Of a stretch of 64,000 nucleotides of DNA, positions 61,726 through 61,951 are shown one piece after another; the first letter of the stretch is position 1, and each line of letters opens with the position of its first letter. Origin of the DNA: a virus. Location: the IMG/VR virus record IMGVR_UViG_3300042691_027063, positions 1-64,000 of that record; one strand, 5' to 3'. A program made the translations under genes and the position numbers. The notes under the pieces are model-generated. The model saw only the letters and a list, made by a program, of their open reading frames with translations. It was not told where the DNA came from and searched no databases.

Positions 61726-61893
61726 TCACGCTATGCGAGCGGCTAATTCTTTCTTAGCTAAGTATCTAGTCTTTGCTTCTAATCCAATATAATCATAAAA
61801 TCTAGGCTTATTATTTCCTGTATAAAAAGTCCAAGCATTATAAAATTTCCACTTACCATTAACATATACAGCATAAAAGTTATATGGTCTCAT
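61726..61893 (-). CDS. 55-aa aromatic/basic early protein whose RBS lies in hammerhead stem III
   Basis: AGGA-6 nt-ATG at 61893 (MRPYNFYAVYVNGKWKF...); the longer ORF-track version runs through the ribozyme. Confidence 0.6.
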   Translation of the reverse strand: MRPYNFYAVYVNGKWKFYNAWTFYTGNNKPRFYDYIGLEAKTRYLAKKELAARIA

Positions 61894-61898
61894 TTTAT

Positions 61899-61951
61899 TT
61901 CCTTTTCGTTCTTTTGAACTCATCAGGTAAGACATACATCTTACGAAGGAA
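61899..61951 (-). ncRNA. Hammerhead ribozyme, type III (cleavage predicted between 61945 and 61944)
   Basis: UUCC-UUC^ / stem I GUAAGA-UGUAUG-UCUUAC / CUGAUGA / stem II GUUC-AAAA-GAAC / GAAA / AGGAA closing stem III; full canonical core with all stems Watson-Crick. Confidence 0.93.

Follow-up and report, generated by a model that had tools for sequence, protein, structure and literature searches.

The locus described here raises the question of whether a phage can make the translation of a gene wait until the RNA that carries it has cut itself. The window, i.e., the whole analysed stretch of 64,000 nucleotides, comes from a virus record of 95.6 kb that is rated complete, and the locus lies on its minus strand. 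The record represents an uncultured phage whose sequence is present in freshwater metagenomes; no RNA run was among the datasets listed for the locus. The gene content includes a family B polymerase, a DnaB-like helicase and a ribonucleotide reductase; no tRNA was found. Two hammerheads, an upstream one (HH-A) and a downstream one (HH-B), precede a gene for a protein of 55 aa, and all genes neighbouring the pair are on the same strand. The first-pass annotation had proposed that the Shine-Dalgarno (SD) sequence of the 55-aa gene is one strand of stem III of HH-B, and that self-cleavage followed by product release unmasks it, so that the protein is made only from processed RNA.

The anatomical part of this proposal can be read directly from the sequence (Table 1). 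HH-B is a complete type III hammerhead at positions 61952-61898 of the minus strand, with 11 of 11 core positions canonical and UUC as the cleavage-site triplet. The helices that meet at the core have 6, 4 and 6 bp; stems I and II are capped by loops, while stem III is open and is adjoined, with a gap of 0 nt, by the GC-rich hairpin P0. Neither loop accommodates an insert of the size of a sensor or aptamer, stem II being 4 bp with an AAAA loop and the loop of stem I being 6 nt long. The AGGA at 61903-61900 is separated by 6 nt from the AUG at 61893-61891, and only 10 nt lie between the GAAA of the core and this AUG. The coordinates of the AAGGAA strand and its distance from the AUG at 61893 had thus been given exactly in the first-pass annotation, and the partner strand UUCCUU does lie on the upstream side of the predicted cut.

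Table 1. Features of the locus, in order of transcription; positions are those of the window.
Feature	Positions	Strand	Basis
HH-A, type II hammerhead	62278-62227	minus	read base by base
GC-rich hairpin P0, GGGGAG / 8-nt loop / CUCCCC	61971-61966 + 61957-61952	minus	read and folded
Stem III of HH-B, 5' strand UUCCUU (anti-SD strand)	61951-61946	minus	6 canonical pairs with 61904-61899
Predicted cut of HH-B, C17 / G1.1	61945 / 61944	minus	position relative to conserved core, Rfam alignment
Stem I hairpin of HH-B, GUAAGA-UGUAUG-UCUUAC, 6-nt loop	61944-61927	minus	read, Rfam alignment
Core CUGAUGA (C3-A9)	61926-61920	minus	read, Rfam alignment
Stem II hairpin of HH-B, GUUC-AAAA-GAAC	61919-61908	minus	read, Rfam alignment; 3 variable pairs covary in relatives
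Core GAAA (G12 A13 A14 A15.1)	61907-61904	minus	read, Rfam alignment
Stem III of HH-B, 3' strand AAGGAA, doubling as SD of the next gene	61904-61899	minus	read from sequence
55-aa gene, AUG 61893, stop included	61893-61726	minus	ORF and homologues
Terminator-like hairpin followed by T-run, 3' of the 55-aa gene	61617-61586	minus	

We compared HH-B to the Rfam model Hammerhead_3 (RF00008), to which it aligns end to end (model positions 1-54) with a score of 36.1 bits and E-values of 2.3e-5 in the 3.5 kb searched and 1.5e-7 in the genome search. The score is below the curated gathering score of 48.5 bits, and the Rfam scan of the window at gathering thresholds reported nothing. Hammerheads of this class score low because the Rfam consensus differs from the class in its stems and loops. 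The class itself was collected in viral, metagenome and genome collections with a pattern on the shared stem I and core, so that stem I is invariant by construction. The pattern retrieved 31 distinct type III hammerheads, HH-B included. In their alignment 89.9% of cells are paired; the value falls to 75.3% in shuffled controls and does not exceed 44% if the partners are shifted against each other. Compensatory changes were found in 10 of the 17 counted pairs, with changes on both sides in 6 of 7 pairs of stem III and in all three variable pairs of stem II; the UUCCU/AGGAA pairing of HH-B is itself a doubly changed version of the class consensus CUGU/ACAG. As to a possible tertiary contact between loops I and II, the class alignment shows conservation of 90% or more for the first U of loop I and for two further positions in the hairpin of stem II. 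Taken together, these features make HH-B a convincing self-cutting hammerhead RNA, with cleavage predicted from its sequence.

The gene behind the ribozyme had to be considered as well. Its product has three remote homologues of 51-68 aa with 49-61% identity, all of which start at the aligned Met; 18 columns are invariant. This small family conserves the pattern YN[YF]YA...GK[WY]K...TRY[LK]AKKEL, and the protein has no Pfam or PHROG match. Judged by these comparisons, the 55-aa gene is real and begins at the AUG at 61893. A public gene call of 69 aa takes as its start an AUG at 61935, inside loop I, and extends across the ribozyme. This longer call is most likely an artefact; the homologues support the Met at 61893. 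A tblastn search against all retrieved loci gave no match, and a back-translated pattern for TRYLAKKEL gave a single match that lies inside a large ORF and is attributed to chance. In this genome an SD-like word occurs at -20 to -4 in 46% of ORFs of at least 70 aa versus 9% of random sites, and the spacing between GGA and ATG peaks at 5-8 nt. By these measures of SD usage and spacing, AAGGAA at a spacing of 6 is an ordinary, good SD.

If the SD is placed inside stem III for the sake of gating, this placement is expected to be kept by relatives, and the first-pass annotation had named this as a check. Searches of a phage isolate collection with DNA and protein gave no match to the phage, no close relatives of the locus were found in IMG/VR, whether the query was the 55-aa protein, its alignment or the 179-aa neighbour, and the DNA contigs of four runs held no variant of the SD or of stem III, only unrelated hammerheads of other phages. 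Conservation of the SD was judged on classes of ribozymes, not on orthologous loci. Within the class that shares stem I, the SD is inside stem III in 1 of 31 cases, i.e., only in HH-B. In 17 of the 30 other members an ORF starts 24-56 nt after GAAA, and the SDs of these relatives begin 16-45 nt after GAAA, whereas the gene start behind HH-B is at +10.

The layout was also searched for directly. The pattern GAAA-AGGA-N4-9-ATG gave 15 matches, none of them a true hammerhead with the SD in a helix; one (L057) is a real hammerhead with its SD downstream. A second pattern, biased toward SDs in that GAAA-N-GGAG and a nearby ATG were required, retrieved 39 stretches, many of which are clear type III hammerheads of several lineages. 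In these, the SDs of different downstream genes are part of ACGGAG(G), the 3' strand of stem III; GGAG is fully paired in independent lineages (e.g., L060, L085 and L086), and in roughly half of the lineages with an overlap the pairing extends to just two bases of the SD. Recurrence of the predicted SD-in-helix layout in several phage lineages is thereby confirmed at the level of sequence.

The frequency of this layout was estimated from a sample that places no requirement 3' of the ribozyme. This sample was obtained with the pattern CCGUC...GAAACGG, which matched at least 119 stretches; among the matches listed, and with loci from the SD-biased search left out, there were 99 distinct phage hammerheads. 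Among these listed matches an ORF starts 12-51 nt after GAAA (median 25) in 87 of 99 (88%), an SD is recognisable in 33 of those 87, and the SD starts inside the helix in four of the 33 (4 of the 99 hammerheads). Measured from the helix end, the SD starts of the listed matches form an unbroken spread between -4 and +30 nt, and the overlapping positions do not stand out as a peak. The expectation that relatives keep the SD in stem III was thus not borne out, neither in the class with the same stem I (1/31) nor in the CCGUC class (4/99 among the matches listed). What is conserved is the position of the ribozyme shortly before a gene, and not the masking of the SD.

A further element of this arrangement is the hairpin that precedes the ribozyme. 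A hairpin abuts stem III in 78 of the 95 listed loci L095-L200 versus 11% of random sites, and in 12 of 30 loci L004-L041 versus 8% of random sites; the gap between a GC-rich hairpin and the 5' strand of stem III is 0 nt in 53 of the 95 listed and in 10 of the 30, respectively. These counts indicate that GC hairpin, predicted hammerhead and start of the next gene are a conserved module in many uncultured phages.

Several of the retrieved loci differ in their setting and are recorded here as separate observations. The locus L063:13138-13190 is a type I hammerhead with GGGAG in its stem III hairpin, and its cut falls between GGGAG and an ATG 10 nt downstream, so that cleavage would cut the apparent SD off from its start. 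L034:2829-4455 (identical to L042), on a contig binned to a Paceibacterota MAG, contains three type III hammerheads that are nearly identical and are spaced by 921 and 665 nt; no ORF start was found within 150 nt downstream of any of the three. The metagenome contig L024:1-1246 has identical first and last 123 nt at an offset of 1123 and is therefore a circular or tandem element of 1.1 kb. Its single type III hammerhead shares stem I and core with HH-B, and an ORF of 190 aa on the opposite strand matches the Satellite tobacco necrosis virus coat protein family (PF03898, E 2.7e-20). Similar hammerheads are found on contigs of 1-1.5 kb (L012, L017, L019 and L031).

Upstream of HH-B, the type II hammerhead HH-A has its predicted cut between C62255 and G62254. 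Its match to RF00008 is weak (19.4 bits), and it was not matched in the search with RF02276. The two hammerheads bracket an RNA of 310 nt (62254-61945) that is free of ORFs, rich in hairpins and without a match in Rfam. Once freed, this RNA would have a 5'-OH at one end and a 2',3'-cyclic phosphate at the other, and the anti-SD strand forms its 3' tail. A weak sigma-70-like -35/-10 pair (TTGTAA, 17 nt, TAAAAT; 9 of 12 matches) is present on the minus strand at 62314-62286 and ends ~8 nt before HH-A; given this distance, HH-A may trim the 5' triphosphate end of the primary transcript.

We also calculated how strongly the SD would be masked. The stem III duplex in trans (6 bp, 2 GC) has -6.0 kcal/mol according to RNAduplex, which through dG = RT ln Kd corresponds to a Kd of tens of micromolar; thus, release should be fast. 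In the nearest-neighbour model, opening the SD-AUG window (61904-61888) costs 4.3-5.2 kcal/mol in the uncut RNA versus 3.3-3.9 kcal/mol in the cut RNA. The modelled gain from unmasking is ~1-1.5 kcal/mol, a figure computed with tertiary contacts and co-transcriptional order outside the model. It should be noted that the hammerhead fold is not the minimum free energy structure in the same model, which is without tertiary contacts. The competing folds are an extension of P0 by GAAG/CUUC, a pairing of AGG with CCU of the core, and a pairing of the ORF start with stem I; some of them leave the SD free and others re-pair it.

The interpretation toward which we lean, and which we hold to be probable by a modest degree, is that HH-B is a constitutively self-cleaving hammerhead and part of a processing module widespread among phages (GC hairpin, hammerhead and start of the next gene), in whose compressed leader the SD here does double duty. 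By cutting, the 310-nt RNA would be detached from the downstream mRNA that encodes the 55-aa protein; the upstream product would end in the hairpin P0 and a 7-nt tail with a 2',3'-cyclic phosphate, and the downstream mRNA would begin with a 5'-OH and a flush 5'-terminal stem I hairpin. Since the leader has only 10 nt between GAAA and AUG, the SD has to be the 3' strand of stem III; therefore, it would be paired in the intact ribozyme and become free once the short 5' product has dissociated. In the catalytically active fold this pairing would be a necessity, and the partner strand would depart with the 5' product. Translation would then follow processing after a constant delay of between seconds and a minute, without a regulated switch. 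On the best reading, the masking of the SD results incidentally from a leader that is unusually short, and the order "cut, then translate" is enforced, not regulated. The anatomy, the covarying helices, the recurrence of the module and the reality of the gene are shown by the sequences, and we infer cleavage in vivo, release of the product and any effect on translation or stability. That the 5'-OH hairpin end stabilises the downstream mRNA, as also suggested in the first-pass annotation, is plausible and would depend on the host.

A rather unlikely reading is that the masking was selected as such, i.e., that it is the point of the design and that the 55-aa protein comes only from processed RNA. 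It would provide a timing or quality-control step, or make expression depend on Mg2+, temperature or the folding of the upstream RNA. The core of the SD is indeed paired (6 of 6 pairs), stem III remains paired even though both strands are changed relative to the consensus CUGU/ACAG, the layout with a fully paired GGAG is present in independent lineages, and engineered analogues work, with 5- to 100-fold activation (PMC5052635). However, the layout is rare (1/31, and 4/99 among the matches listed) and represents the short end of a continuous range of distances, pairing is limited to two SD bases in about half of the lineages with an overlap, an aptamer-sized insert is absent, and the modelled gain in accessibility is only 1-1.5 kcal/mol. 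The gating proposal of the first-pass annotation consequently holds in its anatomy and logic, with the SD as a strand of stem III, the partner 5' of the cut and a 6-bp duplex left to come apart; as a selected or regulatory feature it is not supported, in view of the rarity of the layout, the missing sensor, the small energy gain and the competing folds in which the SD is free or paired elsewhere. We also consider it unlikely that pairing of the ribosome-binding site into a hammerhead helix is a selected, general phage strategy in which translation waits for self-processing. If this were true, only insulated and end-protected mRNAs would be read, and phage hammerheads would have their first defined job.

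It is quite unlikely that the overlap of SD and stem III has no effect on initiation, either because ribosomes open a 6-bp helix or because other folds free or re-mask the SD after the cut, in which case cleavage would at most touch RNA ends and stability. Folding of the free ensemble does favour the alternatives listed above (extension of P0, AGG with the core CCU, and ORF start with stem I), and opening the SD-AUG window costs a similar amount in uncut and in cut RNA; thermodynamic models, however, omit tertiary stabilisation and the order of co-transcriptional folding, and engineered constructs show that masking by a ribozyme stem can matter (PMC5052635). Finally, that HH-B is a chance or decayed hammerhead-like sequence without ribozyme activity is very improbable: its Rfam score is below the gathering score, but the core is canonical at every position, its three helices are perfect, there is another hammerhead 310 nt upstream, and dozens of relatives have the same stem I with covarying stems II and III.

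According to a 2019 review, the function of bacterial ribozymes, the hammerheads of bacteria and phages among them, is still largely elusive (PMC6765202), and the locus together with its dozens of relatives offers a concrete and cheap test of what phage hammerheads do. The hairpin-ribozyme-gene module, of which HH-B is an example, looks like self-contained cutting of a phage transcript into units with protected ends, and a minority of such modules, HH-B included, may also couple initiation to cutting. If the masking matters, synthetic ribozyme switches would have a natural counterpart in HH-B; otherwise, the module would still be a useful and testable generalisation. The value of HH-B is that of a testable handle on the function of phage hammerheads, not of a demonstrated switch. 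Our literature search found no natural hammerhead with an SD in stem III; an earlier description in the hammerhead papers of 2010-2011 is possible.

Among known systems, the closest are the clustered hammerheads that flank phage and prophage genes, for which processing of long transcripts into gene-length mRNAs was proposed (Perreault et al. 2011, PMC3088659). As there, a type II and a type III hammerhead are close together in a transcription unit and flank a short segment, which in the present case, unlike in those clusters, is free of ORFs. In the haloviruses HF1 and HF2, a start codon follows a hammerhead at a distance of 13 nt, and mapping placed a 5' end at the cut (PMC3088659). HH-B likewise is directly ahead of a gene, which in the haloviruses is an early one. 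Ribosome-binding sites are not mentioned in that paper, whereas the SD is here the 3' strand of stem III.

The comparison to engineered switches, which the first-pass annotation had drawn, is apt in one respect and not in another. Engineered ribozymes with the SD in a stem give expression 5- to 100-fold above that of the inactive forms when they are active, and structure left just upstream of the SD lowers the output (PMC5052635). For the SD-sequestering hammerhead design, that paper, whose own constructs are twister ribozymes, cites Wieland and Hartig 2008. HH-B shares with these designs an SD that is paired in a ribozyme stem and a masking strand that is removed by cleavage. The engineered switches, however, carry an aptamer that makes cleavage dependent on a ligand, whereas the loops of HH-B are minimal (6 nt and AAAA) and a sensor domain is absent. 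RiboJ, the engineered leader hammerhead that serves as a 5'-UTR insulator and raises expression (PMC6206723), is also of type III, removes the upstream RNA and leaves a defined, structured 5' end immediately before the ribosome-binding site. In RiboJ an extra hairpin keeps this site exposed, while in HH-B the site is inside the ribozyme.

Cutting of a phage transcript between cistrons is well known from T7, whose early polycistronic RNA is cleaved by host RNase III to leave hairpins at 3' ends and, sometimes, altered initiation. That processing needs a host protein, whereas the HH-B module would be self-contained. A 2026 paper reports that hammerheads in 5' and intergenic UTRs promote translation in fungal and plant RNA viruses (PMC13725137). 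In those viruses, as at the HH-B locus, a self-cleaving ribozyme with a link to initiation precedes the start codon by a few nt; the RNA-virus systems differ in their eukaryotic hosts, in having type I hammerheads and RNA genomes, and in starting translation without an SD.
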